Assembly: GCA_001275005.1 (NCBI GenBank)
Contig: JWZX01002498.1
Coordinates: 1-35,330 of the forward strand
DNA: 35,330 nucleotides
From: Chrysochromulina tobinii
Taxonomy: Eukaryota
Direction of reading: 5' to 3'
The notes under the pieces: model-generated
The model's database searches: none
Seen by the model: the letters and a program-made list of their open reading frames with translations, nothing else
What the model was told of the DNA's origin: nothing
Shown: positions 4,189 through 32,519 of the stretch, in pieces
Numbering within the stretch: the stretch's first letter is position 1
Layout: every line of letters begins with the position of its first letter
Made by a program: the position numbers and the translations under genes

Positions 4189-5066
4189 CCCTCGCCGAGC
4201 GATACACATGCGAACATGCTCGCGAAGCATGCATTTCCCTACTATGAGCTACATGTATGAAGGGCTTTACTTCTAAACATGTCTAAAAAGTGACGTTGGA
4301 CCTTTTGTGCTGCGCTTACATCGTAGTATACAAACACGTACATGGAACATTTCTATCGGGTGCGAGAACCAGCTGAGCTCGGCACGTGCAAGCTAGCAAA
4401 ATCCAAAACACGCAGTGACTCGGAGTGACGGCAACCAGGACGGCAACAAGCTGTTACCAGGAGGCACTCCCACGTCCCAGATTCATCCATGATTGCATCA
4501 TCGCCGAACGCAACGCCCCATGCGATCTGGCCCAAGCCGCAAGCGCCATCCACCGGCCACATAGTGTACTCCACACGCTCCACAGGCACAGCGGCTCCAC
4601 CCCATTTCAACGACCCCAAGCCCATCCAGCACGGCGCGATCCGCGTCGTCATAACGAGCAGAAGCTCACCGTTCCAGACCCACAAGCCGCTTGCATGCGC
4701 CACAGACCCAACTTTGGAAAGCGCAAGCTGCTTGCATGCGCCACAGACCCAACTTTGAAAGCGAAAGCAGCTCATGGCCTCGAAACCTTGCATCCACGTG
4801 CCATCGTCACATGCGCTTCACATCACATGCGCTTCACACACATCACATGCCCATCAAGCATGTGCCGACGCCCAAGCTAGTGCCATCCAGCGTGTGCCTC
4901 TACACGTCGAGTGCACCTCGTTCTGCACGAGCGACCTCGCTGAGTGACCCTGCGCAGGGGAGATCACCATCTCGAGGGAGATCACCATCTCGAGAGTAGC
5001 AGAGCGAGCTCACGTCTCTCAAGTTGATCTCCCTCGAGATGTTGATCTCCCTCGAGCTCACGTCTC

Positions 5067-5191: not shown

Positions 5192-8100
5192 GCCGTTCAA
5201 AGTCGCGCGTCAGCCTCGCCATCAGCATCTCGTCCTGCAGGTCGTCAAAGCCCGCCTCCTCCTCCAAGCGCTTGACGAGCGCCTCCACCGACCGGGGGAG
5301 CTGCAGAGCCATCGCGCGCTCCTGCGCCCCCTCGATACGCACGAGCTTCTCGCGGAATCGCTGCGCCAACACGAGCACCTCGGGCTTCTTCTTGGCCTCA
5401 TCCGCTGACGTGGGACGCATGGACGCCTTCGCCTTCTCAACCTGTGTGGCGCGGGAGCACGGGTAGTGGCGGTGTGTCGACAGAAGCACATGGCACGCAC
5501 AGCACTACACAGCACTCGCCTGGGTGGGCAGTCCGAGGCACTCAGAGGAGCAGGGCACTCAGAGGCGATCACACGCCTGGTTGGGCCAGTAGCTGTGAAC
5601 AAAGCCACTCATGAGCATCGCCCAAGCCTCGTGCACCAAGCACCAGCCCAGCGGAGGGGCAATTGGCGCCAAGGGCTGTGGAAGAACGGTCGAGGCGCCG
5701 AGCTGGGCGCGTTGTCTCATAGAAGGTGACGGACGAGACGTCCCGAAGTCCTGGGGAGGTGAGGGGTAGGGGTGGGGGTTGGGGTTGGGTTGGGGTTGGG
5801 GGTAAAGTGTTTGGATAGGGTGTGGGGTAGGTGCGGGGGGGGGGTCTGGTAGGGCGTGGGGTACGTGCGGGGAGTCTGGGGTTGGGCGTGGGGTAGGTGC
5901 GGGGTGACCTGCAAGACCGATGTCGACAGGCTAGCGAAGAGCGCGCAGGTGCAGCCCATGGCGCGCCTATACGTGGCTTCCTCCGAAGCTGTCCATGGTG
6001 GCTGTGGCACACAGCTCACGTTTACGAACAGAAAGAGCTCTGAAAGGCTTTGCCGTTTCGTCTCACGATGGAGGTGAGCGATGAGGTTGGCAAAGGCGGC
6101 GCTCGCTTCGGGGCTATCGAGGTCGACCCTCGGCTCGATCTCGGCGACGAGATCGTATCCTAGGGCTCGTGGCTCTACTGCCTCCTTCCCCGCCTCCTTC
6201 ATCGACGCCCCCTCTGCCCGTGTCCCAGGCTGCAATGCCGCCGCGTTGAGCACGAGGATGGAACGGTCAGCACCTGCGATCGCAATCAGACGCACTCATG
6301 GGTACGATCGCAATCCGACGCACGCCGGATAGCGGCAACGGCCTCCTCAGTCGTCATCACTCGTCATCAGTCGTCATCACTCGTCATCACTCGTCATCAC
6401 TCGTCATCAGGGCGCACGTCGGATAGCGGCAACCGCCTCCTCAGTCGTCATCAGTCGTCATCAGTCGTCATCAGTCGTCATCAGTCGTCATCAGTCGTCA
6501 TCAGTCGTCATCAGGGCGCACGTCGGATAGCGGCTACCGCCTCCTCAGTCGTCATCAGTCGTCATCAGTCGTCATCAGGGCGCACGTCGGATAGCGGCTA
6601 CCGCCTCCTCGGGCGTCGCGAAGGCGTCGGCAGGTAGCTCTTGCATGCGCTGGAAGCGCGAGGGCGGCGGGGGCGGCGGGGGCGGCGGGATCGTGTCAAC
6701 CGAGGCGCGGCGCGTGAGCGGGGAAGGGCTGCTGCTTGTCTGGCTGCACGAAAGCGGGGGAGGGCTGCCGCTCGAGCTGCGCGTAAGCGGGGGAAGGTGA
6801 CCGCTCGCCAAGGCGCTCGGCACACTCCTCGCTGCGGCTGTAGGGCCCCCGCTCGAACCTGCATGCAATCGCAAGCACAGACGCCCTCGCATGGTGAGTA
6901 GACAGTGCCAATCAGCGGAGAGATCATATCTCGAAAGGGAACATCAGCGGAGAGATCATTATATTTTTGAAAGGGCCTTTCTCTGCAGGGGCTCGCGCCA
7001 TACCGCCTCCGCCACTGCCTCCGCCACTGCCTCCATGACCGCCTCCGTGACCGCCTCCGTGGCCGCCGCCGCCACCGCTGACGTTGCTCGCGAGAGGGAG
7101 CCCCTGCAGCCCCAGCAGCCAGCTGCACCGCACAAGCTTGAGGACACCCTCAGCAAGCGCCGTCGCGAGCGTCTCGTCGACGGAGCTCATCGTTGATTGC
7201 ACCTGCTCGCGGAAGCTCGGGCCGGCGGGAGGAACGCCCGCGCCCGTCACGGCGCCCTTGCCGACGGCCTGCGAGCGGTGCCCGGCAGCGAGCCCTTTTT
7301 TGCGCTGGTCCGCTAGGCTCACCGCCGTCTGCAGCAACGTGTTGAGCTCCTTGTACTCAATCCTGCCGCCCTCGTCCTTGTCGAGTGAGGCGAAGCGCTC
7401 GTCCGACTCCGCCTGCGTCACGTTAAACCCAAGGGCGCGCAGAGAGCGGAAGAATTCGTGTTGATCGATCTTGCCGTTGCAGTCCTCATCCCATAGTGTG
7501 AGCAGGTCGATTACGCGTGCTGATGAGCGAGAGATCGCTGCGTGCAGCTCATGGTTGATGACCTCCCTGATGTCGACGCTCCCGTCGCCTGTGGTGTCGA
7601 GTGCGTCGAAGCGCCGGCGCAGCGCCTCGTCGCTGAGCCCCTCGCTACGCCCCTCACTGTCCCCCTCGCTGCGACCCTCGCTGCGACCCTCGCTGCGCTC
7701 CCCTTGCTCGCGCGCACGGATGAAGTCGCAGAACTCACCAAAGTCCAGGAGCCCGTCTTGCATGGTGCCCGTGCGCACCTGAGATGATCGAGGCCATATC
7801 AGCATGCAATCAGCATGCAATCACTAGCAATCACCGGAGCCCGCCTTGCATGGTGCCCAGTGCGCACCTGTGATAGGGGAAGGCCATTCGAGGCCATCTA
7901 TCGCAATCAGAGAGGCCCTCAATCGCAATCAGAGAGGTCCTCAGACGCAATCAGAGAGGTCCTCAGACGCAATCAGAGAGGTCCTCAGACGCAATCAGAG
8001 AGGTCCTCAGACGCAATCAGAGAGGTCCTCAGGCGCAATCAGAGGCCCTCTTTTGATTTTGAGTTCTTGGTGCGATTGCATGCAGTGCGCACTTCGTCTA

Positions 8101-10969
8101 CAGATCGAGCTGCTTGCCTCCCTGCTGCGCGCACATCGCGTTGCTTGGCCTCCTTCTCCATGAGTTTCGTCACCTGTGATGAGGGAGGCAATTCGAGGCC
8201 ATTCGAAGACATCAGATGCAATCAGAGGCCATCAACGAGGTTCTCAATGGGCTTCGTCACCGCCGTTCGGGTGCGCATTGCCCCTCTCATCGACTCGAGG
8301 AGCTGATCGACAGCCACATTCTGACATACCTGTGGTGACGAGGGAAGCAATCAGAGCTCATCAGAGGATTCGTCACACTTGTTGCCAATAGAGGCCCAAT
8401 ACTGACGATGGGTAACGATGGGCTCGACGCTCAAGCAATCAGAGCTCATCAGAGGGTTCGCCACACTTGTTGCCGGTAGAGGTCCAATTTAACGATGGGC
8501 TCGACGATCAAGCGTCGAGCCCGGCGCTCTTCGAAGACACTCTCACTCAGGAGCGCGGGAGGTTGCATCTCCCCGCGGTTCGTCAGGAGCGCGGGAGATT
8601 GAATCTCCCCGCTTTTCGAGCGCGAGCCACGGCTCGAGCCCCGGCTGGACAGCGCCAGCCGTTCCCACTTGCTTGGAGGCTTGGCGGGCGGCGGCGGCTT
8701 CGGGCCTGTCTTGCGTGAGGACTTATTCGCAAGGGCAAGCTCGCCGCGGCGCAGCATCCGATAGATTGTGAACGGGCTCACCTGCATGCACAGCCATCAA
8801 TATTCGATCAGCCTGCATCCAGCCTGCCATCAGCCTGCCATCAGCCTGCCATCAGCCTGCCATCAGCGTGCAATCGGCGCGTCATCCTATAGAGTACCTA
8901 ACGATCACATCAGCCATCAATCCATCAATCACCGGAGCAAGCTTCGCAAAGAGCTGATCCACTTGATGAAGGAGGCAATCAGCATGCGGATCACCGGAGC
9001 AAGCTTCGCAAAGAGTTCATCCACTTGATGAGGGAGGGTCGTACTGAACCCAAGGTCGATCATCGTCGCCAATTGGAAGTCGGCACGCAGCAGCTTGCCG
9101 TCGCCATCATAGTCCCATTTGCGGAAGAAGGCGAGCGCCTCGTCCGCGTGCTCGGCGAGCTGCAAGCTGAGTGGCTGCACGGCTTCAAAGTACTGGAGGA
9201 CGAGTGCGTGAGGGCTCGACTCATCCTGAGCACCGCCCGCTCGCGACTGCGCGCGAAGGGCATGCAAGTCCTCAACCTTCACCCTTCCGCGCGCTTCGGC
9301 ATCGAAGGCCAAGAAGAGCTTATCGACGCCCAACGGGTTGATTCCGACACTCCCCGTGCGAGGGAGGGCGGCCCCAAACTGGCGGCGGTTGAGCGCACCG
9401 CCATGCTCATGCGCCTGGGAGAGGAGGACCTCGATCAACAGACCTTTGGCGTTGGCGCCCCGCGTGACGCCCCAGCAACCCGCCGTCTCGAAGAAAGAAT
9501 CCGCGAACATCAGTTTCTCCCTCGATCTCCGTCGATTCATCGAGCCGTTACTCCACTCGTCGAGGACCTTTTTGGCGGCCGTGTCCCCAGCCTGACCCCC
9601 GGGTTCAAGCTCGTGTGGTGAGCCTGGCTCCGCCGGCAGCGGGGAGCCGGGCTTGGGAGGTGGCATTTCGCAGATCTCCTTTTGGGTGATCGGATGACGT
9701 GTCGTGCGCTTGACGAAACGCGTGGGTCCGCCGTGACGAATCATGCGGTGCATCTCGAGGAGGGTGAGCTCACCATCGCCGTCCACATCCAAGCGTTCAA
9801 AGAGGGCATGCAAGTCATGCTTGTCCGCTGGGCGAGCCCGCCGCCTTCAGGGCGGCTCCAAACTCCTTCTCGTCGACGCTGTTGGTCGCGTCCGTGTCCC
9901 ATTGACGGAGCATGTCGATCGTGCGCGCGCCACTTCGAATGAGGCACTCCTGCAGCTTCTCTACGAGCATATCGCCCGAGTACGTCTTCGCCTGTGGCCA
10001 CACGATGGCCATCGTCGGCATGTAGGAGAGGGTCGGGCGATTGCGCAAGTGCGACCTCGTCGGTCTCCCGTCGTCCTTGAGCGACTCCAGTGCGGCCGAA
10101 GAGTCCGCCACGGCACGTGGCGGCACATTGCCACGAGCGAGGGCGCGCAGCAGCTCATGCGCAGCCACGGATCGGGAGGCATGCCTGATGAGGGTCTCGT
10201 GCTCAGGCTCGATGATGGCACGACCAAGCTCCGGCTCAGGGCTGTCGGCATCGGGGGCGGCATCGTCGATGCCGCCGTCGAGGTCGAAGTCCGCAGATCC
10301 AGAGGAGAGCGCACCGCCGTCCTCGGAGTGATTGCATGCTGATTGCACGCCGTCCTCGGAGGAGGTGAGCAGCTCCACGCCGGGTAGAGCGTCGAGCAGC
10401 CCTTGAATCTCAACCACCGAGATATTGAGCGGCGGCCACACCGACTCGTGCTGCGTTATCTGCCAGAGGCCATCCGCGAGGATCGTCTTGTCGACAAAGC
10501 CGTGGCCGTCGTCGAGCTTGGTGAGCAGCTCTCGGATCCGCATGCGTTCCTGCGCCCAGACCCGCACGTTCAGGAGCCGTGCCACCTCGATGGGCGACCT
10601 GTGGAGCACTCGTCCGAGTGTGGAGAGCGGCGCGAGGGTCGGCGACGACCTGCACTTGATGAGCTCGCTCTTCCGACGAGACGGATCAAGCCGAGCACCA
10701 TCACTGAGGAGCTTGGTGAGCTTGGATTGTGGAGCCCCGTACAAGGCAGCCGCAGCATCCACGCCCGGTGGTGGTGGCAGCGGGCCCGGCGCAGAGACGC
10801 AGTACTCAAATATCAGAGGTGGCACGGATCGGCCGCTTGTTCTTTCGCGAGGGGACATGTGCAAGGCTGTTCTCGACCTCGCCGCGTCGTCGGGCGACGC
10901 TTCGGTTGAGTGAGACGCGACCACCCGCCGAGGCCGTGGCGGCGGGATGCCCAAAGTTGGCGACAACAT
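5151..10969 (-). CDS. Large multi-EF-hand protein with C-terminal HET-like region; 9 exons, one apparent frameshift
   Basis: EF-hand loops DTDATNSVDEKE, DVDGDGELTLLE, DYDGDGKLLRAD, DTTGDGSVDIRE, DEDCNGKIDQHE, DKDEGGRIEYKE. Proposed exons 10969-8995 (frameshift near 9830), 8781-8467, 8329-8261, 8173-8093, 7778-7004, 6858-6586, 6273-5909, 5750-5577 (GC donor), 5441-5151; phases are compatible at every junction. Confidence 0.7.
6274..6585 (-). repeat. Intron filled with (GTCGTCATCA)n arrays and nested copies of the upstream exon end
   Basis: 10-bp unit arrays at about 6348-6410, 6442-6514 and 6545-6578, separated by copies of gggcgcacgtcggatagcggc(a/t)accgcctcctc. Confidence 0.85.
7903..8046. 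repeat. 22-bp tandem repeat (CGCAATCAGAGAGGTCCTCAGA) inside intron 7779-8092
   Basis: About 6 copies seen directly in the sequence. Confidence 0.9.
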
Positions 10970-14754: not shown

Positions 14755-17700
14755 TCACGTGAGGTCCATCACGTTGGCACTCGCATCACTCTCACCAGCA
14801 GCAGCAGCGCTCCGCGATGCCCCAAGCGACGCCGAGACGAGCGCGGAGCCGGCAAACCCGTCCTCGGGTGCACGCGGTTTGCCTCCACTCGCGCTGCCGA
14901 ACGCCTCCTCGATCGCGGGCATCTCTGCCACGCGGCTCGTGTCGATGTAAACGTGGATGAACGAGTTCGGAAGCACGCCAGCATCGGAGAGCGTCTGCTC
15001 GTCATTGAGCAGCTCATCGCCGTCAATAAAGAGGCGCTGCTGAGACGGCGACCATTCGGTCGCTTGGTAGATACGCAGCTTCAGATTGAGGACGTTGATG
15101 GACGAGCTGGCGCGAACGCTCAACTTCGAGCCTGCCGACGCACGCGACGATCGGCGGGCGGGCCGCCCGCTGTCGCCGCCGCCGCTGCTGTCCGCCACAT
15201 CGACGCTGCCGCCCCCGCCGCCCCCGCCGCCGCCGCTGCCGCCGCCGCTCCCGCTTGCTTTATCCACGTTTGGCAGAGCCGCCAGCTTCTTCAAATGCAC
15301 GGGCTGCTCCGTGTACTCGAGGAGCGCACCGAGCACTTCTAAGCCCAGTTTCGTCGAGCACCCCTCGCACACGGGGGGCTGACATACGAAGCTGCCGTCG
15401 TCACGCAGCTCGCAGCTCGGCAGCCGCAGATCCGTGAGATCGGACAGCGAAGCTCCGTTGGCAAGCTCGAGCGCTTCCTCTGCAGTGACCATGCACAAGC
15501 GTGCGCCTAATTGCTTGTCTCGCTCGGCCTCACGGCGGCTGAGCGCACCGCCGCTGCCGCCGCGCTCTCCATAGCGGCCTTCAAAGGATCCATTCCGAGG
15601 CAGAAGGCCCATCACGTTGCGGACACACAGCTCAGGCTGAATGAGCAGCTTGCCATGATCCGTGCAGCACTCGGCGCCGCGTGGCGCGCCAGGCTTGCTT
15701 ACGTGGGTCGATTGCACGGCATGGCGCCATTCGGCGATCCATGTGCCATCCAGGAGGTAGAGCGGCCTCGTAGAACGTAGGACGTCGGGGTCGAGCCGCC
15801 CATCCTCCTGCAGCAGCCGCCCCAAGCGCTGCCGCTGCGCTGAGCGTGAGGCGATCTCCGACTTGGCGCTCAACTTGGCGCTCATCTTCTCATCCGCCTT
15901 GGCGGCTTCCCTCTCGCATTCCGACACCAGGCACGCCGCGCACTCGACCAGACGGCCATCGCCGTCGCCTCTGCCAACGGCCTCGACCAGTATCGGAATG
16001 CTGTCGGGGAACAGGGCAAAGAGATGCCCCCACGCCTCGGCGCCGATCGTGCGTGCATGCGCCTCGAGCCGCAGCAGCTTATCGTGTGGGCAGAAGAGCT
16101 CGCGTGTCGCATCCCTCTGTCCCTCGCTAAGCCATCTGACCCATTTGCTTCCAGTGAGCCTGGGCACGTAGTAGTAGTCGTCATGCGGCACGCCCCCATC
16201 GCCTCCGTTCGCCTCCACTGAGGCGTGTTTCGTCAGACTGGACGAGGCGCTGTTGAGGGCGACCGCCAGCGCGGCCTTGTGCGCCTCCTTGGCCATCTCC
16301 AGCTGCCTCCTCTCCCATTCCGCGTCCGCACACTCGACGCACCCGGTCGCAAGTAGCTCCGGTCCTCCTCCAAAGAGCCCGAGGAGCTTTTGCCATGCGG
16401 CTACCGAGATGAGTTTCATCGCGCCGGTGCTCACGTGCTTCGGGTCCGCCGCTCCACCGTGGCAGCACTCGATAAATTGGTTGCGAATGGGTCCGAGCTC
16501 GTCGGTGGTGCCTCGTGGCCCCAGTGTCAGGCACGCTTGCAGCCACCTGCTCTCGATCCATCGGCCGTCGTGGCCATCAGAGCGAAGGATCGGACGGAGC
16601 TCGTCGATAAGAGTCTGCCGCGCCGTGAGGCGCTCAGTGTGCGCGCACAGAGCGTCCTGATACTTCTCGGTGGCGGCACGCAGCGCCACATTCGCCGCAT
16701 GCACCGCCTCGCGCACCGTCGCCGGCGCCTGCACCTCCGCGTGCGTCGCCTGCGCCTCCGCGATCACATCGTCGCGCGTGTACATGAGCATGTACGCCTC
16801 GTGCGATGCAAAGAGCCGCCCGTCGCAGGGGGCGCTCTGCTTGAGGAGCGTCACGCCGTTCGGCTTGGGCTTGGTCGCCGCCTTGGCAGGGTCGAAATCT
16901 TCCTCTGTGACGAGCTCGTCGTTCACCGTCAGCCAGCGTGCGGCCGGACTCTGTTCGAGAATACGCGCCGTATAGTGCCCCGAGTGCGCCGACGCCCCCG
17001 AATGCATCAAGACCGCCGTCAGTCGATAGGTGTTCACAGCTTGGGTCGAGGGCGCATTGCTGTGAACATGGCTGTGGCCGCCAGCCGGGCCGAAGACAAG
17101 CGAGCTCGTGTCAAGGAGCTCTGGGAAAATGATCGGGTCGCTCACCTTCTTCTTGGCATCCTTGTTCGGATCGTACACAAAGCGCTTGAGCTGCAGGCAG
17201 AGCACCGGCGGCAGCTGGCGAATCGCGATCTGCCGTGTGGCGTCGCGACGGCCCTTGCAGTGAATGCACTCGTACTGGTTGCTCCCGTCGAGATGCTCCA
17301 CTGCTATATACTCGTCGAGCGCTTGCTGCAGCGTCGGGCGCACATTGAGATCCAGTTCATAGAACGGGAAGCAGATGGACGACGAGTCGGAGGGCGTGCG
17401 GCAGGTGCAGCACTGCGTGTGGTAGCAAAACGAGCCGCGAAAGTGGTCCTGAACGAGGGTTTGTATGGCCGGCTCCGGAGAAAGCTTCAGCTGCTCCTCT
17501 AGGAATGAGAGCAGCAGCTTGCAAAACTCCGACGCATCCTGCTGCACGGACACGTCGAGGCTGAGCGCGGACGTGAGGGCCGCCGGGTCGTAGCACGCGG
17601 AGTCCGAATGCTGAAGATTCGCAAACAGGAGTTGCAGCTGGCGGCAGACCTCATCGGCCCGCACCTCCTCTGGGCGGCGCGACGAGCCGGTGGAGGCCGC

Positions 17701-18108
17701 CGCCGCCGCTGCCTCGGGCGGTGGTGGCTGCCCACTGCTACCGCCACCAGCACCTGCCCCACCAGCCCACTTGTAGATGCCACGGCGGAATCCGACATTC
17801 ATGTGCAGGCATTGAAGCAGCGAGTTCATGTAGCATGTTGCCCCGAGATTGCGGAGACCTGTGCCTGCCGTGGCGTCGGTACGCACTTTGTCTCTTGGCT
17901 CCAACCCGAATAAGAGCTTCGCGTCTGCATCCTTGGCGGCCTTCTTTGCGGCCGCCTCCACAGCCTGGAGATCGGTCGGATCTGCCGCGCTCTTCTGCTT
18001 CTTCGCCGCAGCTTGCGTGGCCAGTCCATAGATGTACTGTTGCCGCGCCTTGGCGTCGGACAGCTGCGGCATCGGCATCGCGTCGCGACGCACTTTCTTG
18101 CCAGACAT
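14755..18108 (-). CDS. Ubiquitin-specific protease, USP48/UBP26-like (C19 peptidase, DUSP-like segments, C-terminal ubiquitin-like domain), intronless
   Basis: Cys box GLRNLGATCYMNSLLQCL, QQDASEF, LQLKRFVYD, His box HSGASAHSGHYTA, DUSP-like C.HG segments, C-terminal UBL (LKLRIYQATEWSPSQQRLFIDGDELLNDEQTLSDAGV). ATG at 18108 (MSGKKV) preferred over 18306. Confidence 0.92.
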   Translation of the reverse strand: MSGKKVRRDAMPMPQLSDAKARQQYIYGLATQAAAKKQKSAADPTDLQAVEAAAKKAAKDADAKLLFGLEPRDKVRTDATAGTGLRNLGATCYMNSLLQCLHMNVGFRRGIYKWAGGAGAGGGSSGQPPPPEAAAAAASTGSSRRPEEVRADEVCRQLQLLFANLQHSDSACYDPAALTSALSLDVSVQQDASEFCKLLLSFLEEQLKLSPEPAIQTLVQDHFRGSFCYHTQCCTCRTPSDSSSICFPFYELDLNVRPTLQQALDEYIAVEHLDGSNQYECIHCKGRRDATRQIAIRQLPPVLCLQLKRFVYDPNKDAKKKVSDPIIFPELLDTSSLVFGPAGGHSHVHSNAPSTQAVNTYRLTAVLMHSGASAHSGHYTARILEQSPAARWLTVNDELVTEEDFDPAKAATKPKPNGVTLLKQSAPCDGRLFASHEAYMLMYTRDDVIAEAQATHAEVQAPATVREAVHAANVALRAATEKYQDALCAHTERLTARQTLIDELRPILRSDGHDGRWIESRWLQACLTLGPRGTTDELGPIRNQFIECCHGGAADPKHVSTGAMKLISVAAWQKLLGLFGGGPELLATGCVECADAEWERRQLEMAKEAHKAALAVALNSASSSLTKHASVEANGGDGGVPHDDYYYVPRLTGSKWVRWLSEGQRDATRELFCPHDKLLRLEAHARTIGAEAWGHLFALFPDSIPILVEAVGRGDGDGRLVECAACLVSECEREAAKADEKMSAKLSAKSEIASRSAQRQRLGRLLQEDGRLDPDVLRSTRPLYLLDGTWIAEWRHAVQSTHVSKPGAPRGAECCTDHGKLLIQPELCVRNVMGLLPRNGSFEGRYGERGGSGGALSRREAERDKQLGARLCMVTAEEALELANGASLSDLTDLRLPSCELRDDGSFVCQPPVCEGCSTKLGLEVLGALLEYTEQPVHLKKLAALPNVDKASGSGGGSGGGGGGGGGSVDVADSSGGGDSGRPARRSSRASAGSKLSVRASSSINVLNLKLRIYQATEWSPSQQRLFIDGDELLNDEQTLSDAGVLPNSFIHVYIDTSRVAEMPAIEEAFGSASGGKPRAPEDGFAGSALVSASLGASRSAAAAGESDASANVMDLT

Positions 18109-18304
18109 GTGAAGAGGTTCTCTCCGAGAATACGGGAGCTGACTTTTTTCGCAATGACACAGTGATCTTCTGGACCGTGAATGAGTGGTGGAGTTGATTG
18201 AATACATGTGCTGAACTTGAGACGAAACACTGCGTTCACGAGTTCGTTCACACGTCGCGGGCCTACTCGCGCGGCAAAGGACGAAACGCGTCTCGCGGGA
18301 CATC

Positions 18305-18898
18305 ATGCTGCGGCTGCCGCTCCAAACCGCCCTACTGGGCGGCGTGCTCTACGGCCCGGCACCCTGCTCCCAAGCACCTCTTGGAGAACAGTGCAACGGC
18401 TCCCGGTGCCATCCCGACAACAGCAATTGCCCGCCAGTGTCGACTCACCCATCTTGCGGAGAGCATCCTCACTCCGGGCGCGATGGTGCGCTCCTCACCT
18501 GGGGCAAGGACTTCCGCGCCGGCTCTGCGCAGGAGTGCTGCGACAAGTGCAAGGCACACCCGAAGCACTGCAACTCGTGGACGTTCTGCCCGTTGCCCGT
18601 CTGCTGGGGTCTCGACTCGGGCAACAACCACACGTTTGGCGAGTGCTGGCTGCGACGTCTCCAGGACGTGCAGGCGGACTCAAGCTTTCGTCAGCGCGGC
18701 AAGTACACGCAGGAGTGGCTTCTTTGGCACCGGCGCGTGCGCCCAGGCTGCAAGCACAAGGAACCGTGGCATTGTTCTCCGACTCACGTGCCGTATACTT
18801 CCGGAGCGATCGGGGGCCCGCCGTACGACCCGACGGCCGAGTTCCGTACCGGTGGCAAGTGGGGCAACGTGTGGGTGAAGCCGGGGAGTGGTAGTTGA
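18305..18898 (+). CDS. Secreted Cys-rich PAN/apple-like domain protein
   Basis: Hydrophobic N-terminus; SAQECCDKC..CNSWTFCP..C......GECWLR..VPYTSG pattern typical of plant/algal PAN-like proteins. Confidence 0.7.
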   Translation: MLRLPLQTALLGGVLYGPAPCSQAPLGEQCNGSRCHPDNSNCPPVSTHPSCGEHPHSGRDGALLTWGKDFRAGSAQECCDKCKAHPKHCNSWTFCPLPVCWGLDSGNNHTFGECWLRRLQDVQADSSFRQRGKYTQEWLLWHRRVRPGCKHKEPWHCSPTHVPYTSGAIGGPPYDPTAEFRTGGKWGNVWVKPGSGS

Positions 18899-19292: not shown

Positions 19293-21191
19293 TCACCGCA
19301 TCTCAGGGGATGCGTTCTTGGCGCCCGACTCGTCGCCCAGGAAGGTGGCGAGCACCGCCGCCGCGAGCGCGAGCTGCTTCTTGAGCGAGAGCCGGTACGA
19401 GACGAGCGCAATCTGGCACGGGAGCACCGGATCTCCCCGCGCAGATGCCATCTCGAGCGCGAGCAGCTCCTTCGCGTCCTCATCGAGCGAGGTCGTCATC
19501 TCGCCCAATCTCCACCGGATGGCGGCGAGCAGCGGCGCGGGTCTGATGGGCTCCTCGCCCTTGGGCACCTGATGAGGGAGGCCATCAGCATGCAATCAGG
19601 CGCGGGTCTGATGGGCTCCTCGCCCTTGGGCACCTGATGAGGGAGGCCATCAGCATGCAATCAGGCGCGGGTCTGATGGGCTCCTCGCCCTTGGGCACCT
19701 GATGAGGGAGGCCATCAGCATGCAATCAGACTCAATCAGTCTGATGGGCTCCTCGCCCTTGGGCACCTGATGAGGGAGGCCATCAGCATGCAATCAGACT
19801 CAATCAGTCTGATGGGCTCCTCGCCCTTGGGCACCTCCCCCAGCAGGCACTCGAACGATGATGATGGCCATGCAAGGGCAATCAGCGCACCTCCCCCAGC
19901 AGGCACTCAAACACAGCCGCGAGCCGCGCCGACGAGGCCAGCGACGAGCCGCGATGCGCGTCAAACGCCGCCAGCAAACCGCCGATCGCCGCGCTCGACT
20001 CGGTGAGCGGTGTCGAGGGACTTGCGGCGGCAGCTGCCGTAACCCCCGGGGCGTTGGCCGCGATGGCAGCGCCGAGGGTCGCACGCAAAAGCTTCGCATC
20101 CTTGGCACACCCGTCGCTTGGCACGAAGCCATACTGAGCGAAGAGTTGCTCACCTGATGAGGAGGCACGCAGATGCCATCAGATGCGAGCAGAAGACGCA
20201 AGCAGACGCAAGCAGAAGGTGCAAGCAGACGTAATTGATGATGGATGCAATCAGGTGCAATCAGATGCAATCAGTCCTCACTCGAGTAGTCCGGATCGTA
20301 ATTGATGGTCACCTCCTCCCCTGGCTTGAGGTCGGCTAGCGCGGTGAGCGTCGCGCCGTCTTGGGCATCGACGCGGAAGTTGGCCGTGGGCACGTCCGCG
20401 TGCTGCGCCATGTCCAAGAACGGCACGAAGGCGAATGTGTCGCCGTCGGCCATCGCAAAGCAGCGCGAGACCACGAGCGCATACGCGTAGGGCAGTGGAC
20501 GAGGGATGTATTCCATCGGGAAGCCCCTGTTTGTGTAGGAGGCGGTGACCGGGTGCGTCGCGTGCGCGTGGAGCGATGGGTGCAGATCCTGGAAGAGCGC
20601 CCTCTTGGCCTGCACCTTCGCTTGCAGCTCCACATTCTGCAGCTCCGGCAGCATAGCCTGTGGAAGACAGAGCGGGTGCGTCATCGACGGCGGCGGCGGC
20701 ATCAACTTGCGATAGTCGTCCCAGAAGCCGCCCGCTCCGCCCGCGGTCGCTTCGTAGACGGCGAGCGCGAGCCGCACATCCCATGTGGCGCCGCGCTGGA
20801 AGAGCTCCTCGCCGACCTCCTCGCGCAAGTCGCCAGCGGCCTCCCACATGACTTCCGTTTGGCCCTGAAGACCACCGATGCGTCCTGAGCGATGCGCGGT
20901 GAGCAGCAAGCTGGCGGGAACCGAGAGTACAATGTCACCCTTGCTCACTGCGCGACGCGTCACCAGCCGCCGGCCGCCGCTGCCACGCGCTGACCCTTCC
21001 AGCGTGATAGCGGTCAGCGGATCGTGCTCGGTGAGGAGCGCCGTAAAGAGTGCCGTGGGTCCGTCCGGCGGCTGCTGCAAGCTGATGGCGCTCACTCGTT
21101 GCCTGCAACGATGGCCGGCGCTCAGCCCGTAGGAGGCGCATGCGACAGCGTCGAGTGCTGAGTGGAACCCGAGCATGTTTGCGGCGAGCAT
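19293..21191 (-). CDS. SET-domain lysine methyltransferase, Rubisco-LSMT-like, 3 exons
   Basis: Exons 21191-20282, 20153-19891, 19568-19293. Motifs GRRLVTRRAVSKGDIVLSVP, VSRCF, VPFLDMAQH, GEEVTINY; splicing restores YSSEQLFAQYGF; C-terminal TSLDED..YRLSLK resembles the LSMT substrate-binding domain. Confidence 0.88.
19536..19835. repeat. 65/68-bp tandem repeat spanning intron acceptor and exon start (about 4.5 copies)
   Basis: Unit gtctgatgggctcctcgcccttgggcacctgatgagggaggccatcagcatgcaatcag, with acceptor-like AG at 19569, 19634, 19699 and 19767. Confidence 0.92.
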
Positions 21192-21341
21192 TGTGGTTTG
21201 GCGTCGCAAATGGATCTGGAAAATCTCAAATCTGAATTCGGTGAGTGTTTGGAACAGGACACGGTTCGCGCTCATTGCCTTGGCGGCTCATTGCCTGGAT
21301 GCACCCGCTCGCCGTATGCCCTTCCACACCCTCGTCTTGTC

Positions 21342-23728
21342 TCAGCCCGCGAGCTGGACGCACTGCCGGCGTACCCGAAGCTGCTTGCCGTTGCCGAGCT
21401 CGACGAGATAGCGCGCCGTCTCGGTATCGTGCTCGAGCACGCGCGCGAGCTCACCATTCAGATGCGTCGCCGTGGACGCCTGCAAGCCCGCGACGACGCC
21501 GACGCTCTGCACGGGCAGCACCGCCGCGCCGACGGGCAGCGGGATTGCATCTCCCGAGCCGAGCTCGACGCCGTACAGCTGCGCGGCTTCGTCAAACTCA
21601 AAGACGGTCGCGCTCGCGCCGTTGTGAGCGCTGTGCTCGCCCACGAGCCCTTCAATGCGCACCTGATGAGGGAGGCAATCCGAATGAAATCAGCATGCAA
21701 TCAGCATGCAATCGGCATGCAATCAGCATGCAATCAGCATGCAATCAGCGCACTTCGAGCATCTGGAGCAGATTGAGACGGCGCACGCGCAGCAACGTGC
21801 CGTCCCGCAGCGCCACTGTGTATCGATCCGCCTCGCTCTCATACCCCTTGAGGACGCCCACCTGCCCATCCGATGAGGGCGGCCATCAGCATGCAATCAG
21901 CTTGCAATCAGCATGCAATCAGTACCCCTTGAGCACGCCCACACCTGCCCATCTGATGAGGGCGGCCATCAGCATGCAATCAGTTCCCCTTGAGCACGCC
22001 CACACCTGCCCGTTGCGTTCGGCAGCCCCCTTGAGCCCGCGCAGCTTGACGTACCTGATGAGGGAGGCAATCAGCATGCAATCAGCATGCAATCAGCATG
22101 CAATCAGCATGCAATCAGCATGCAATCAGCATGCAATCAGCATGCAATCATTCCCCTTAAGCGCAGCTTGACGTACCCGTCGATGGGCAGCGTCATCAGA
22201 GCGCCGTGTGGAGCGCCACCTGACGAGGCGGGTGCCGCCCCCTCCGCTGCCGCCATTGCCGCCGCCGCCGCAGCCGATGGCTGACCGGTAGAGGCGCACG
22301 CGGCGACTCCGGTCGGTGCTCGGGACGCCGCCGCCGCCGCTGGCTCGGGCGCTCGGTACAGCGCGTGTGGCTCCGGCGGTGCTGGCGGCGGCGTGGTCGG
22401 CCGTCGTAACGACATCCGCCGCGCCTCATCGACCGTGCCATCCGGGGCGCGCTTGCGATTGCCATCGTACAGGGACGCATGCAACCGCCGTTCGTTGAAC
22501 CAACGGCCATCCATGGCGGCGAGGCATGCCTGATGATGGGAGCAATCAGGCGCCATCAGCTGTCGCACTCAGAGGCTTTCGGTGGCGAGGCCTGCCCTGA
22601 TGATGGGAGCAATCAGAGGCATGCCTGCCTGATGATGGGAGCAATCAGAGGCATGCCTGCGCGCTTGCCGCCTGTGTGAAACGGACGGCCATCGGCCCGT
22701 CCATCTCTGCCGCGAAGGACTGCACTCGCTCGACCTCGCCGAAACGCAAGCACTCGCACCTGCCATCAGCAATCAGCATGCAATCAGCATGCAATCAGCA
22801 TGCAATCAGCATGCAATCAGCATGCAATCAGCATCTCGCTCGTCGTGCAATCGTCATCCAATCAGCATGCAATCAAAGCACTCGCACCAGACAGATTCCT
22901 CAAGGGCACCGAGAAAAGCGCGCACCTGCCATCAGCACGTCATCAGCACGTCATCAGTTGACCAGCATAGGCAATCATACGCACTCCAATGCAATCATAG
23001 CCAATCATACGCACGTCGCCGCAGCTGCCCATCTGATGAGGGCGGCAATCAGCATGCAATCATACGCACGTCCCCGCAGCTGCCAAGCTCTTCGATGGAG
23101 AAGAGGTTCGTCAGCACCACCACGCGTGCCCAGTCCTCCTTGGGCACGGCGCCGCGCGCCTCGAAGTGCGCTGCGCTCACCTGTGGGAAAGAGGGTGGGC
23201 GCGCCGTGGTGAGCACCTGCATGCAACGGCGTCTCCCTCCGCCAAGTGCGCCGCGCTCACCGTGAGCGTGTCGCCGAAGAGAGCCCAGTCGCGCGAGAGG
23301 GCGGCCTGCAGGCCCGCGTCGGTCGCAAAGGTCACCAAGCCATCGCCCTTCGGCTCACCGGCCGCATCCTTGTACAGCTTGACCCTGCGCACCTCGCCCG
23401 CCTTCGAGAAGAGCGTCTGCACCGCTGTCCAGACGACCTCCTTCGGGATACCCGTAACGTAGGCGGTGAAATTGGCCACGTTGGCCTCGGCGGCGGCGGC
23501 CTTCTCCTTGCGCCGCTCGGTCTTGCGCTGCAGCTTGCGCCGGCGCTGCTCCTCGGCTGATTCGGCGCCCGCCGCGCTCGTCGAGGCGAACACGGAAGCC
23601 CACGCTTCTTCCTTGGTGTCGCGCTCGTCGTCACTGCCGCCGACGGAGCCGCTGGCCATTTCGAAATTGCGCTTCTGTGCCTTGGCCAGGCGCTCCTGCT
23701 CGGCCATCATCGCGGCTTGGTACGCCAT
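21342..23728 (-). CDS. Tat-SF1/Cus2-like two-RRM splicing factor with three C-terminal SH3/KOW-like repeats, 8 exons
   Basis: Exons 23728-23261, 23180-23070, 22925-22888, 22759-22657 (GC donor), 22529-22177, 22054-22006, 21861-21754, 21662-21342, phase-consistent. RRM1 AYVTGIP..FSKAG..VKLYKDAAGEPKGDGLVTF; UHM-like RRM2 VVVLTNLF..ECLRFGEVERV..ACLAAMDGRWFNERRLHASLYDG. Confidence 0.8.
21689..22150. repeat. (GCATGCAATCA)n 11-bp arrays in introns of the RRM gene
   Basis: Arrays at about 21689-21748, 21886-21922 and 22067-22150; the same unit also at about 22769-22833 and 7798-7823. Confidence 0.9.
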
Positions 23729-23882
23729 TTTGCTTCCCCTCGAAGACACTAGACATCCGATTTCACGTGAATGCGCGGCGTGCGGCAGATCCTCAACCTT
23801 GCATCGGCATCACGATTACAATCGCATAAGAAGGAGTCCATAAGAAGCTCTATTGAGCGCGACGCCGAGTTTCGGCGACATT

Positions 23883-24929
23883 ATGCTGGTCGGATTCGGC
23901 GGGGTCGCAGTCGGTCCATGGCGCTCCCGCAATCCGCTGGCGTGCGCCGTGGACGACAAGCCGTGGCGCGAGCCCTGGCGTGAGGAGCTGTACGATCAAC
24001 TGCAGCATGAGCTGGATTGGAGCCACGTGAACGAAGCCATCTCCCGTGCCGTCTCGTCCGGAGTGGCGCTGCCAGGTGACCTTCAACCCGCACCGCTGTC
24101 GCCTCTGCCTACGCCTCGGCCGCGGCATGCCCACGAGCCTCCTCGCCATACATGGGCGTTGCGAGTCGCCTACCACGGCCCGTCCTACTGTGGGTTTGCT
24201 TGGCAGCCAAGTGGCACCTCCGTGTCAGGGTGCGTGGAGGCGGCGATCGCCTCGCTGCTCGGAGAGCGCACGGTGCTTGCTTGCGCCGGGCGCACGGATG
24301 CGGGGGTGTCTGCGATCGGCCAGCTCGTCACGTTCAGCACCTTCGATCCCACACTCAACTTTGAGGCGCTCAGCCGCGCTGTCGCCGCGGCAGCGCCGTC
24401 GGTTGGCACGCTCCGCCTCGTGTCGGCGCAGACGGTGCCGCGCTCCTTCCACGCCACCTTCTCGACGGCGTGGAGAAAGTACGTGTACCTGCTCCCCGCC
24501 AACGACGCCACCCTCGGCGCCGACGCCGACGCGATCGACCGGCAGCTCCGTCCGCTCGTCGACGCGGGTGAGGCCCACTACGGCGCACTCGGTCGAGGGC
24601 TGCCTCGAGGCAAGAGCCCACGGATGAGGCTGCAGCATGCGAGTGCGCGCGCGGTGCAGCTCGAGGGCGGCGCACGCGCGATCCGGTTCGAGCTCGTCGG
24701 AGATCGCTTCTTGCGCCGACAGGTGCGCACCCTCGTCGCAACGGCGGTGCATGCTGCCAGGGAATGCGGCTCTGGCGACGCGATGGGCGACGTCGAGGAA
24801 GGCGATGACGTGGCTCCTGGGTCCACGCTGCTTCGCATGGCCACGTCGGGGCGGCAGGAGCTGACGGCGCATCCCGCGCCACCCACCGGGCTGGTGTTTG
24901 CGGACAGCGGCATTCTCGAGGCCGGCTGA
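23883..24929 (+). CDS. tRNA pseudouridine synthase, TruA family, intronless
   Basis: LRVAYHGPSYCGFAWQ, AGRTDAGVSAIGQ (catalytic Asp), FHATFSTAWRKYVY, GDRFLRRQVR, APPTGLVF. First ATG is 23883. Confidence 0.92.
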   Translation: MLVGFGGVAVGPWRSRNPLACAVDDKPWREPWREELYDQLQHELDWSHVNEAISRAVSSGVALPGDLQPAPLSPLPTPRPRHAHEPPRHTWALRVAYHGPSYCGFAWQPSGTSVSGCVEAAIASLLGERTVLACAGRTDAGVSAIGQLVTFSTFDPTLNFEALSRAVAAAAPSVGTLRLVSAQTVPRSFHATFSTAWRKYVYLLPANDATLGADADAIDRQLRPLVDAGEAHYGALGRGLPRGKSPRMRLQHASARAVQLEGGARAIRFELVGDRFLRRQVRTLVATAVHAARECGSGDAMGDVEEGDDVAPGSTLLRMATSGRQELTAHPAPPTGLVFADSGILEAG

Positions 24930-25688: not shown

Positions 25689-28600
25689 TTAATAGAATCC
25701 GCCCGCCTCCGCAATCGCCGCCCTGATGGCGGCGTCGCCGTCCGCCAGAGTCCGAATCGCCACCCTGATGGCGGGGTCGCCGAGCGCCAGAGTCCGCAAC
25801 GCGCCGGCAGCGTTTGCCAAAAGCGCACCTGATTCCCAGAGTTTGATCATCCCGTCGACCGATCCCGACACGATCTTCGATCCGTCCGGGGAAAACGCCA
25901 CCGACATGACGTGGCTGCTGTGCGCGTCCGTCTTCTCGCTCAACAGCTCCAGCTCTGCCAGACAAGCCAGCATCCGTCAGTTTTGGCCAAGGAGGGGCGA
26001 TTCTGAGGGCTCACGGCGCACCTGAATCCCAAACTTTGATCGTCCCGTCGTACGATCCAGAGACAATCTTGGTCCCGTCCAGGGAGAACGCCACCGACAT
26101 GATCTCGCTGCTGTGCTCGTTCGTCTTCTCGCTCAAGAGCCCCAGCGCGCCTGCGAGACAAGCCAACAAGCGTCAGTTTTGGCCAAGGAGGGGCGATTTT
26201 GAGCTCGCGGCGCACCCAAATCCCAGACTGTGATCGTATTGTCGTCCGATCCGGACACAATCTTGGTCCCGTCCGGGGAAAACGCGACCGACCTGATCCA
26301 GCTGCTGTGTGCGTTCGTCTTCTCGCTCAGCATCTCCAGCTTGCCTGCCAGACAAGCCAAGAAGCGTTAGTATTGGCCGAGGAGGGGCGATTTTGAGCTC
26401 GCGGCGCACACGAATCCCAGACTTTGATCGTCCTGTCGTGCGATGCTGAGACAATCTTGGTCCCGTCTGGGGAAAACGCCACCGAACTGACGATGTTGCT
26501 GTGGGCGTCCGTCTCCTCGCTCAACAGCTCCAAGTTGTCTATCAGACAATCCAACAAGCGTCAGTTTTGGCGAAGGAGGGGCAATTTTGAGGGCTCACGG
26601 CGCACCTGAATCCCAGACTTTGATCGTCCCGTCGACCGATCCCGAAACGATCATGGTCCCGTACGGGGAAAACGCCACCGACATGACGATGCCGCTGTGC
26701 GCATCCGTCTCCTCGCTCAACAGCTCCAAGTTATCTGTCAGACAATCCAACAGTGTTGGCCAAGGAGGGGCGATTCTGAGGGCTCACGGTGCACCTGAAT
26801 CCCAAACTGTGATCGTCCCGTCCTCCGATCCCGACACAATCTTGGTCCCGTCCAGGGAGAACGCCACCGATTTGATCTCGCTGCTGTGCTCGTTCGTCTT
26901 CTCGCTCAAGAGCCCCAGCGCGCCTGCGAGACAAGCCAACAAGCGTCAGTTTTGGCCAAGGAAGGGCGATTTTGAGCTCGCGGCGCACCCGAATCCCAGA
27001 CTTTGATCGTCCCGTCGTACGATCCTGAGACAATCTTGGTCCCGTCTGGGGAAAACGCCACCGAACTGACGATGTTGCTGTGGGCGTTGGTCTTCTCGCT
27101 CAACAGCTCCAGTGTGCCTGCCAGACGAGCCAGCAGGAGTCACTTTTGGACAAGGAGGGGCGATTTTGAGCTCGCGGCGCACCTGAATCCCTGCAGACTT
27201 CGATCGTCCGGTCGTCCGATCCCGACACGATCGCCTCCATCGCCGCTTGGATGGCGGCGTTGCCGGCAGCCAGAGTCCACAACGCGCCGGCCGCGTTCGC
27301 TTTGCCCTGAGCGTCACCGTCGCGCACGAGCGCCACGAGCGCCTCAACGGCGCCCGCCGCCGCCATCGCCGCCTTGTTGGCTTTGTTGTGCGCTAGCTTC
27401 CCCAAGGCCTCCGCGGCTGCGGCACGCTCCTCAGCGGTACCATCTCTGAGCATCGCCACCAGCGGCGGGAGGGCGCCGGCCGCGGCGAGTGCCCCACGCA
27501 TCGGATCCGTCGATTGAGCTGGCGGTGCGTCGGCGAGACTGGCGATGCCACTCGCCACCGGCGTCCGCGCACCGATGGCGCACGCTTGGAGCAATGCCAC
27601 CAGCGCCGCAGCCGGATCCACGTTAGCCACAGCGCGCTCCACCTCCTCGGTGGTGAGAACGCTCTCCGAGGCGATTCCGAGCACCTCGAGTGTCTTTGCC
27701 TTCATCGGCTCCACCTGAAGCATCTGCTCGCGGATCATGACGCGCTCGGCCGCACAGGCCTCCTTCCAGTCCGTCATCTCGTTGGCCGCCTCGAGCACGA
27801 GCTCCGCCGTCGACTGCTCGCGCCAAACAAACGTGCCGCGCTCGTGTGAGGCCTGCGTTTGCAGCTTTGCCACGATCGCCTCGGTAAACGCGGGGAATCG
27901 CTGCAACTTGAAAGTTGAGGCGTCAGCGGCGAACGCCTGCTTCGCCTGGCTCACAAACCTGTGCTGGCTCTCCATAGCGCTCTTCACCATCGCCAGGTGC
28001 ATCGCGGCGAGCCCAGTGCAACCACCAGGCTTCACCAGCTTCGAAACCGTCGGCTTGATGATGCTATCAAAGCATTCATCAGCCACCCCACCCATCGCCT
28101 CGTCCAGCACCGCCTCGGCAGCTCGGCACGCCGCCGCCCGAAGCTCGTCGAGGGCCGGGCCGGTCGGCGCCTCGACCGCCTCAGGCAAGCCGAGCGCATC
28201 GCACTTCGCCTGCAGCCGCTTGAGCTCTCCGTTGAGGCGGATCAGCGTCTGTGGTGCCCAGGTGCTGCGCAGATATCGGGCGTAGACGCTGCTCAGCTTG
28301 TCCACGAGCGCGTCGCACGTCAGCAGGCCATCGGACAACAGCGGCGCTAGCAGCGGCTGCGACGCAAACCACTTGCGCTCGGCCGTCGCCATCGCCTCAA
28401 GCCGCTGCACGTTGCTCAAACCCTCACCCTTGATCGGCTCCGTCATCGTGCCGATGAAGCCGTGCGGTGCGAGCTGAAACGCATCGCCCGACGTCTGCCT
28501 CAGCCGGTCCGGCAGCTTCTTCATGTCCAGCTTCCCGACGTTGTCGCACATCGTCACCACGCCGATCGTGTCGCTCTGCAGGCCCAACTCCTCCACCAGC

Positions 28601-29466
28601 TGCAAGCCGAGCGACTGGGACGGAGGCATGGAGGCTGTGCAGCTCACGAGGAAGATGGCCGATCCCTTGTGCTGCTCGACCTGCGCCTTGACCAGGGCCT
28701 TTGCCTTCTCCGGCATGTCCGCCGCGTCCGAGCCCGCCGACAGCTTCAGCCCGGGTAGGTCGACCAGGTCGATGCTTGGCACCGCCGGCGAGTGCACGTG
28801 CACCTCGATCGTGCGCGTCATGCTGACCGAGGTAAGGCCGCCGTGCTCGGCAGCAAGCACGCGCTCCATCTCATGCCGCACGTCCACCTGCCCGCCCGCG
28901 AGCGACACTGTGCGCCGCACCTCCTCCTTGCCCGTCGCGCTGTCGCGCACCACCAGCACCGGCAGCTGCGCCTCCTTTGTGTGACGCAGCTTGAGCAGGA
29001 TGGGCAGCCGCGTGCACGTGTCCTCGCCGCGCGGCAGCAGCGGCATCATCGCGAGTCGCTCGAGCAGCGACGACTTGCCGCTCGTCTCCTGGCCGAAGAC
29101 GATCACAACCGGGGTCTTCCAACCCTCCAGCGTCGCAGCCAGCAGCTCCGACAGCGGGTCCAGCACATCAAACACCACCTTGAGGGCCTCGAGGCTCTTG
29201 AAGGTGACGGATCGTGCCTGGCGCGCCTTTAGCAGCTCGCCGTCCGCGCGCAGCTGCGCCAGCGCCGCAACCACGTCGGCCGGCGCCTCGCCCAACTCCT
29301 CGTGCATGGGCTGCTCCGGGTCCTGAGGCGAGACAATCGGCAGTCCTTCGGACTTGCGGGCGGCAAAGTACTTGAGGAGCGAGGAGCGATCGTAGACGTG
29401 GCCATCGGCCGCGAGCACCGGGTCGCGGATCAGGTCGTTTGTGAATGCGTCGATCAGCTCCAGCAT
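25689..29466 (-). CDS. U-box + dynamin/Mx-like GTPase + ARM repeats + 7 WD40 repeats, 8 exons, about 1107 aa
   Basis: Exons 29466-27183, 27117-26989, 26923-26795, 26734-26606, 26538-26410, 26344-26216, 26150-26022, 25954-25689 total 3324 nt; all introns GT-AG, phase 1. U-box ([25 protein letters not shown]), dynamin G1 [10 protein letters not shown]2 CTRLP, G3 DLPG, G4-like TMCD; ARM ([46 protein letters not shown]); WD40 HS....[22 protein letters not shown]. Confidence 0.88.
25825..27231 (-). repeat. About 194-bp intron+WD40-exon tandem array (7 full units plus a partial WD40)
   Basis: Intron consensus gtgcgccgcgagctcaaaatcgcccctccttggccaaaactgacgcttgttggcttgtct(c/g)gcag (60-67 nt) followed by a 129-nt exon; the last WD40 unit is one codon shorter. 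Confidence 0.95.
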
Positions 29467-32265: not shown

Positions 32266-32297
<32 letters not shown>

Positions 32298-32364
32298 CCG
32301 CGGGTGCCTTCATCGAGGGTTTCGCAAGTGTGGGGAGGGACTGTGGAATGTCCAGCGGCAGCAT
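29893..32364 (-). CDS. Hypothetical Ala-rich protein with N-terminal PPR-like helical repeats and in-frame tandem duplications
   Basis: Long ORF (29893-32478); ATSLFTAIQRDGYTPSEAAYGAIF and AHALLTQIVDAGWTPPVAGVTTLLAASCR resemble PPR motifs. First ATG is 32364; introns cannot be excluded. Confidence 0.55.
30582..30602 (+). repeat. Interstitial telomeric repeat (TTAGGG), about 3.5 units, inside an ORF
   Basis: tagggttagggttagggttag; translated as NPNPNP on the minus strand. Confidence 0.85.
31343..31595. repeat. In-frame coding tandem repeats: 33 bp x3 adjoining 60 bp x about 3
   Basis: Translate as (SVGALREVEPI)n and (DTVIATHMEAASVGALREID)n. Confidence 0.9.
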
Positions 32365-32519
32365 GCAACAAACTAAGTGGGGAGATAAGGGGGGAAGGGG
32401 GGGAGCGGTTTCATGCGAACGCAATGCGGCAACGCCATGCCTTGATGTCTGCCTGGATGTCCGGAAGCTTCGCATCACTCAGAATATGGGTTCACCATGT
32501 CCGTAGCAATGCGCAGCGA

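Follow-up and report, generated by a model that had tools for sequence, protein, structure and literature searches.

The closest described counterparts of the gene reported here are found in fungi and brown algae. Fungal HNWD/NWD genes, among them HET-D and HET-E of Podospora, combine an N-terminal HET domain and a central NACHT domain with near-identical WD40 repeats (80–100% identity) that are gained, lost and exchanged between genes, are polymorphic in number and serve a non-self recognition leading to cell death (accessible portions of PMC12222747 and PMC13449251), with hypervariability reported at WD40 positions 10–12, 14, 30 and 32 (39) (same portion of PMC12222747). The ROCO-LRR and NB-ARC-TPR genes of brown algae, in the available parts of PMC3341825 and PMC11378527, are candidate receptors with a central NTPase, carry one repeat per symmetric exon and show signs of shuffling and diversifying selection. 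Mx-like proteins have been reported from haptophytes (PMC11789081).

Here, we describe a stretch of 35,330 nucleotides from the unicellular haptophyte Chrysochromulina tobinii (contig JWZX01002498.1, hereafter the window) that contains an array of exon-encoded WD40 repeats in a U-box–dynamin–ARM gene. Quite probably, this array belongs to a set of dozens of spliced WD40 cassette arrays in Chrysochromulina, in which DNA-level recombination is likely to reshuffle the repeats and selection to favour new residues on the top face, and it is likely to be the variable sensor of an innate-immune-type receptor. No published description of this family was found in the open-access literature, supplements aside, on haptophyte WD40, NACHT and NLR genes and exon shuffling, on WD40 exon shuffling and on U-box dynamins; the paper describing the C. 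tobin genome (PMC4580454) names no WD40, NACHT or dynamin in its main text, and the covered parts of PMC13449251 make no mention of haptophytes.

The locus resembles the HNWD genes in the similarity of its WD40 repeats (82.3% mean nucleotide identity in the window) and in the NACHT-type domain of its relatives L013, L016 and L021. Unlike HNWD genes, the window gene has a U-box and a Dynamin_N domain with neither HET nor NACHT, its host is a unicellular haptophyte, and every repeat occupies an exon of its own next to a conserved intron, whereas HNWD repeats form contiguous coding sequence. With the brown-algal genes, as far as the parts of their descriptions available go (PMC3341825, PMC11378527), it shares the one-repeat-per-symmetric-exon layout, the central NTPase of a candidate receptor and the signs of shuffling and diversifying selection. 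It differs from them in that the repeats are WD40 rather than LRR or TPR, the exons are phase 1 rather than phase 2 (LRR), the introns are short (60–67 nt in the window) and homogenised, a closed seven-repeat fold fixes the repeat number, and the window introns contain no spare or inverted exons; Pfam found neither ROC-COR/LRR nor NB-ARC/TPR in the window gene or its scanned relatives. We regard the cassette family as working like HNWD sensors in a brown-algal style of exon layout, and as a member of neither group.

The cassette array in the window

Tandem Repeats Finder reported a 194-nt period in 7.3 copies at 25823–27232. The earlier note on this DNA had described six 129-nt, phase 1-1 exons plus a terminal unit, and both coordinates and sequences hold, as do, to the letter, the variable motifs listed there (Table 1). 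All seven introns are on the minus strand with GT..AG ends, their donors being the higher of the two positions given in the table. The unit pattern was matched seven times in the window and never in 100 shuffles. The introns, previously called almost as conserved as the exons, are more conserved than these (88.2% vs 82.3% mean identity within the window), and five variable codons are 55% identical among the window units, against 88% for the remaining codons. A second, short-read-type assembly (L006) contains the array letter-identical, which speaks against an assembly artefact; across the gene region it departs from the window at six places, all in the multi-copy dynamin part.

Table 1. Positions of the features discussed in the text, numbered from the first letter of the window
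Feature	Position	Strand	Remarks
Ankyrin gene	3439..4248		
EF-hand gene	6924..9846		
UCH deubiquitinase with ubiquitin-like domain	14755..18348		
SET gene	20271..21287		
RRM gene	23177..23809		
tRNA pseudouridine synthase	23844..24929		
Entire gene, from the U-box through the dynamin-family GTPase, helices and ARM repeats to the seven WD40 repeats and the ARM-like tail	25689..29466	-	ORFs, splice model, Pfam
3' graft junction: leftover donor GTGCGC (25828) read as coding, ARM-like tail, stop	25689..25828	-	
Terminal WD40 unit, 126 nt (SHVM, VDG)	25829..25954	-	L070 allele: GMIW, NDG
Intron 7, 67 nt	25955..26021	-	
Cassette exon 6 (SEIM, YDG)	26022..26150	-	near-duplicate of exon 2
Intron 6, 65 nt	26151..26215	-	differs from intron 2 by 1 nt
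Cassette exon 5 (SWIR, DDN)	26216..26344	-	
Intron 5, 65 nt	26345..26409	-	
Cassette exon 4 (NIVS, HDR)	26410..26538	-	mosaic: 5' part unit 3-like, middle unit 1-like
Intron 4, 67 nt	26539..26605	-	removed in RNA contigs
Cassette exon 3 (GIVM, VDG)	26606..26734	-	GTVM allele in L070
Intron 3, 60 nt	26735..26794	-	kept in one RNA-library contig (X12)
Cassette exon 2 (SEIK, EDG)	26795..26923	-	
Intron 2, 65 nt	26924..26988	-	
Cassette exon 1, 129 nt (NIVS, YDG)	26989..27117	-	
Intron 1, 65 nt	27118..27182	-	
5' graft junction: partial WD40 repeat (strands b-c), in-frame ARM fusion	27183..27231	-	RNA contig
ARM/HEAT repeats, cut off at WD40 start	27232..27498	-	PF00514 E 2e-10; paralogues go on with further ARM repeats
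Long helices, aa 383-595, stalk-like by model	27682..28320	-	structure model, fold search
Dynamin-family GTPase domain, aa 121-306	28549..29106	-	PF00350 E 4e-19
U-box-like domain, aa 3-37	29356..29460	-	PF04564 E 3e-4, 21.3 bits vs cut-off 21.4 (borderline)

A U-box–dynamin–ARM gene as host

The splice model of the whole gene has eight exons, 3324 nt and, by arithmetic, 1107 amino acids. Its borderline U-box scores higher in relatives (PF04564 at 1.8e-7 in P0016 and 3.6e-11 in P0022), and at E 0.01 no HET domain was matched by Pfam in the window gene, the N-terminus being U-box-like. The GTPase carries the motifs G1 GQETSGKS, G3 DLPG and G4 TMCD, the last departing from the TKxD form (TKPD in MxA). 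Among PDB sequences, human MxA (2e-19) and MxB were its best matches, with dynamins at 1e-14 or weaker, whereas a fold search with the GTPase model ranked dynamin-3 first; because the two rankings disagree, we do not name the GTPase Mx. Unlike Mx, moreover, it has the divergent G4 and is accompanied by U-box, ARM and WD40 domains. Pfam matched neither Dynamin_M (the middle domain) nor GED, and the model predicts long, stalk-like helices.

Both ends of the array are covered by RNA-library contigs without differences, the 5' graft junction by X13 (27187–27346) and the 3' junction, crossed unspliced, by X12 and X16. The 46-codon ARM-like tail is 81% like the ARM repeat at 27239–27300, the array being flanked by two such ARM pieces. 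As far as the letters go, these junctions show that a multi-copy U-box–dynamin gene has received the WD40 array in the midst of its ARM repeats. Eleven of its 32 homologues are 88–96% identical, and the close ones are annotated as Chrysochromulina tobinii or C. parva. Full-length dynamin heads within that identity range (P0001–P0009) end in different C-termini, namely ARM arrays, ankyrins, MIF4G and decapeptide repeats, and the U-box–dynamin family looks as though it captures C-terminal domains. In copies of the multi-copy head (window 27400–29466), the modules differ from beyond the first ARM repeats onwards. Distant relatives (P0016 and P0019, 31–33% identical) likewise combine U-box, dynamin and WD40. 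Related GTPases occur in Symbiodinium (ankyrins and U-box, named MX2) and Mallomonas (P0022, P0020), and the U-box–dynamin pairing thus also exists outside haptophytes.

Ragged junctions, with a partial repeat and a leftover donor, would suit a genuine family of which the window copy is a recent, non-functional chimera produced by illegitimate recombination, as would the window type of host being found for just one of 34 arrays, the odd captured pieces such as MIF4G at the ends of paralogous heads and one allele that apparently lacks three units. We consider this unlikely, given a frame that is open throughout, the splicing of intron 4, the occurrence of the same locus and tail in another sample (L070) with changes mostly at the variable codons, and the pairing of GTPase with WD40 in the distant P0016 and P0019 as well.

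The neighbouring genes at 760–24929 look like housekeeping genes (Table 1). On the other side of the window gene, a minus-strand ORF of 861 codons (29893–32478) without Pfam match contains perfect 33- and 60-nt tandem repeats at 31342–31595. A motif with 11-nt tandem repeats recurs on both strands (19534–19836, 21661–22150, 22529–22875 and 2647–2680); it probably marks where members of an abundant family of introns or Introners in Chrysochromulina tobinii begin and end. Unlike Introners, the cassette intron was not found at unrelated sites, since all 553 intron-profile matches adjoined a WD exon, over 800 kb of loci that had themselves been picked by WD exons.

Members of the cassette family

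Family members were collected from metagenome contigs, in a scan covering 43 of 64 parts. An exon-pattern search returned at least 129 stretches, from which 126 loci were taken, and a profile search gave 646 unit matches, the window's eight and redundancy included; summed contig depths were not taken as copy numbers. Other copies of the cassette, for which the earlier note had proposed to look, do exist: 383 internal intron-plus-exon units reduce to 228 distinct ones, all but two of them (226) frame-preserving, and stop codons are absent from all 208 distinct 129-nt exons. Arrays were counted in the window and in 66 loci, obtained by grouping assemblies by name and identical flanks, and the resulting 73 arrays comprise 34 distinct ones, some of which may be alleles or fragments. 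Three types of protein carry the cassettes: small seven-repeat proteins with a helical tail (22 of the distinct arrays), NACHT–WD40 NLR-like proteins (9 arrays, with the tail found in NACHT-type genes) and the window gene (one window-like array); two arrays are unassigned. NPHP3_N, NACHT and APAF1_C were identified in the three NACHT-type ORFs scanned (L013, L016, L021); the majority of the family lacks an NTPase altogether. When a single exon served as protein query, most of the 120 matches listed were multi-WD40 proteins of fungi and bacteria, and a viral collection yielded no match to the array.

Complete arrays of the small proteins have exactly seven repeats in 19 of 26 cases, the others having 2, 3, 5, 5, 6, 6 and 8. 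Small-protein paralogues have in common only about 500 nt of upstream and 150 nt of downstream sequence, which indicates that the loci are dispersed. The proteins end in a conserved helical tail of 48 residues (L027:4437–4580 and 21 other arrays), which Pfam did not match and for which close relatives numbered only 15. The tail may bear a likeness to ubiquitin-ligase adaptors, a role that stays unsupported.

Several loci depart from the regular layout. In L024 (324–579), L048, L064, L059 and L038, apparent introns of 250 nt are exons with a foreign insertion of about 60 codons, which sits between two copies of the strand-c motif and is in frame in L024, L048 and L059. Two cassettes of L013 (7224–7842) are inverted, back to back with the terminal NACHT-type exon, and would represent an inversion within the array as described for brown-algal genes. 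At L063:1475–1714, two WD40 units, the first degenerate, are joined without an intron beside an unrelated gene, possibly as a processed copy or by exact intron loss.

Splicing and transcripts

Exact removal of intron 4 from the window gene was seen in two of four RNA runs, at a joint (26538–26606, CT..AC) with a 62-nt side in X11 and a 26-nt side in X13; the exon ends at this intron are distinctive, differing from other loci by at least 6 nt. It is the sole intron of the window locus shown to be spliced, and intron 3 is retained in one RNA-library contig. RNA coverage falls to about zero outside the window gene, a weak hint only. A two-base difference in X1 at 26098–26099 was put down to units 2 and 6 having been collapsed and was discarded. 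Among relatives, the intronless contigs L056 and L104 match exons 1–6 and 5–6 of genomic L052 in order and without mismatch. L056 keeps two introns, one of which (63 nt) lacks its AG and is read in frame as an additional loop of 21 residues.

Exon skipping had been put forward in the earlier note as one possible source of diversity, and diversity arising mainly at the RNA level, by skipping of or choice among symmetric exons as in DSCAM or as proposed for brown-algal ROCO genes, would draw on the phase symmetry that makes skipping frame-neutral, on RNA joints that map as long skips (e.g., 26343–26988 in all four runs) and on L076, which has just three exons. The skip joints, however, have family-generic sides of 20–25 nt with extra letters and fit reads from paralogues, and were rejected as exon skipping; the transcripts L056 and L104 keep the genomic order, and L076 joins two genes across a shared stretch of 48 nt, a probable chimera that was not used as evidence of shuffling either. 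Arrays with exactly seven repeats, as in the 19 small proteins mentioned above, leave no spare exons for skipping. Locus-specific skipping was not seen in the RNA contigs, assembled sequences that drop rare forms. We accordingly find skipping unsupported as the source of diversity and regard a mainly RNA-level origin as quite improbable.

Hypervariable codons and their position on the propeller

In 184 non-redundant exons, codons 14, 15, 17, 33 and 35 are hypervariable, with 13–19 amino acids each and 133 distinct motifs at positions 14–17 and 61 at 33–35. The equivalence to fungal HNWD repeats claimed in the earlier note is borne out by spacing, rather than by alignment to HET-E: these codons correspond to HNWD positions 11, 12, 14, 30 and 32, and the equivalent of position 10 is mostly Ser here. 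Diversity counts over the same exons gave a piN of 0.567 at the five codons versus 0.058 elsewhere, with a piS of 0.271. The five-codon piN/piS is 2.09 (bootstrap 1.98–2.22), for codons picked on the same data and under a strong third-position GC bias that may lower piS; uniform purifying selection does not describe these exons. Between alleles, 29 unit pairs from 10 locus pairs had 28 replacements and no silent difference at the five codons, compared with 23 and 27 at the others (Fisher p 2e-7), that is, 0.113 vs 0.016 differences per site. These pairs were hand-picked, with first exons, indel units and units without a clear counterpart left out; two of the 10 locus pairs were joined by array likeness without flank support, and one other has just 401 nt of flank. 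L027 and L045, with a flank identity of 87%, were left out of the allelic comparison.

Neutral concerted evolution of a tandem repeat, with surface positions that are merely unconstrained, would be compatible with loops that tolerate change, with a GC bias that reduces synonymous diversity and with a case for selection built on diversity counts rather than on a formal codon model. Relaxed constraint, however, predicts a piN close to piS, and twice that was observed; the five codons are sevenfold more different per site between alleles, always by replacement, and other loop residues, PDG at positions 23–25, are nearly fixed. Neutrality alone is thus a very improbable account, and we infer diversifying selection at the five codons, putatively on the top face.

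A structure model was obtained from the six-repeat frame of L056, a relative's transcript (pLDDT 77, pTM 0.79), and matches seven-bladed propellers. In this model, the exon border falls in the c-d turn, so that an exon would correspond to a repeat of the sequence, running from strand d of one blade through strands a, b and c of the following one, and not to one blade as supposed earlier. Codons 14–17 are placed in the d-a loop and at the start of strand a, and codons 33–35 in the b-c loop; the variable residues would thus occupy both loops of a single, top face of the propeller. By the sequence rule that defines the WD40 top-face hotspots, as given in the available part of PMC3419727, codons 15, 17 and 33 are hotspots R1-2, R1 and D-1. 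Seven exons are predicted to close one propeller.

Exchange of repeats

For reshuffling at the DNA level, the window itself offers two candidate cases. Units 2 and 6 share an identical run of 91 nt, with introns 1 nt apart and eight differences overall, and unit 4 matches unit 3 over 29 nt and unit 1 over 63 nt. A Sawyer-type permutation test on the 21 pairs of window units was significant for pair 1/4 only (p 0.001, Bonferroni 0.022), which upholds the chimeric nature of unit 4 as described earlier, while units 2 and 6 look like a near-whole duplicate rather than a proven mosaic. Family-wide, linkage is weaker between sites that lie farther apart in the exon (Spearman -0.27, p 0.0005). For 18 of 212 units, a counterpart differing by no more than 4 nt exists in another array, at a different position or in another type of protein. 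One identical exon stands at different positions in L015 and L054, and near-identical units connect L007 with L054 and L072 across protein types. That 190 of the 212 units were nearest to another array was left unused owing to pool-size bias.

The locus of the window recurs in another sample as L070 (827 nt of flank, 96.4%), where units 4–6 are missing from a short contig and a unit 3-like exon directly precedes the terminal unit; the intron between them has two intron 4-like bases and an intron 7-like end, and four of the five variable codons of the last unit are changed. L051, also a short contig, lacks units found in its counterpart. All contigs are short-read-type assemblies, in which repeats can be misjoined. 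Intron diversity (0.167) is lower than exon piS, and 209 of 228 introns contain a CTRAY-like motif, which is consistent with homogenisation together with splice signals. In contrast to diversity-generating retroelements, the variable codons show changes at all four bases rather than at adenines specifically, and neither a reverse transcriptase nor a recombinase was found among the 17 of 55 long ORFs that were scanned. Of the diversity generator envisaged in the earlier note, repeat exchange with diversification of the surface is supported, whereas exon skipping is not, and no dedicated machinery was seen.

Discussion

How such an array might work can be sketched from its sequence features. Each 194-nt unit of intron and exon brings both top-face loops of one repeat and leaves the frame intact. 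The high identity of introns and framework would permit unequal crossing-over and the conversion of short tracts, both inside a gene and from one gene to another, to which the mosaics, shared exons and allelic differences point. Germline exchange of repeats would then supply variants from which a changing ligand selects. The propeller may bind a foreign target, most plausibly a viral one, on which the GTPase and U-box could oligomerise and which they would ubiquitinate; we infer an immune role for the cassette receptors. A more far-reaching picture, possible but doubtful at present, is of an alga that runs a genome-wide library of exon-encoded WD40 modules, with the conserved intron as exchange site, shared among three chassis: STAND proteins of NLR type, small adaptors made of a propeller and a tail, and an Mx/dynamin-like GTPase with a U-box whose C-terminal sensors can be swapped. 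In this picture, the last would found a novel type of immune receptor, built on a GTPase and directed against giant viruses.

The family provides named candidate receptors for virus recognition in microalgae, with a measurable signature: strains can be typed for the five codons and for unit order, and the types set against resistance to viruses. The natural library of 133 and 61 motifs is also a guide for the design of propeller-based binders. In a third lineage, the hypervariable WD40 repeats of fungi and the one-repeat-per-exon strategy of brown algae are combined, and the window gene suggests that a dynamin-family GTPase can replace the STAND NTPase in the effector–NTPase–sensor design.
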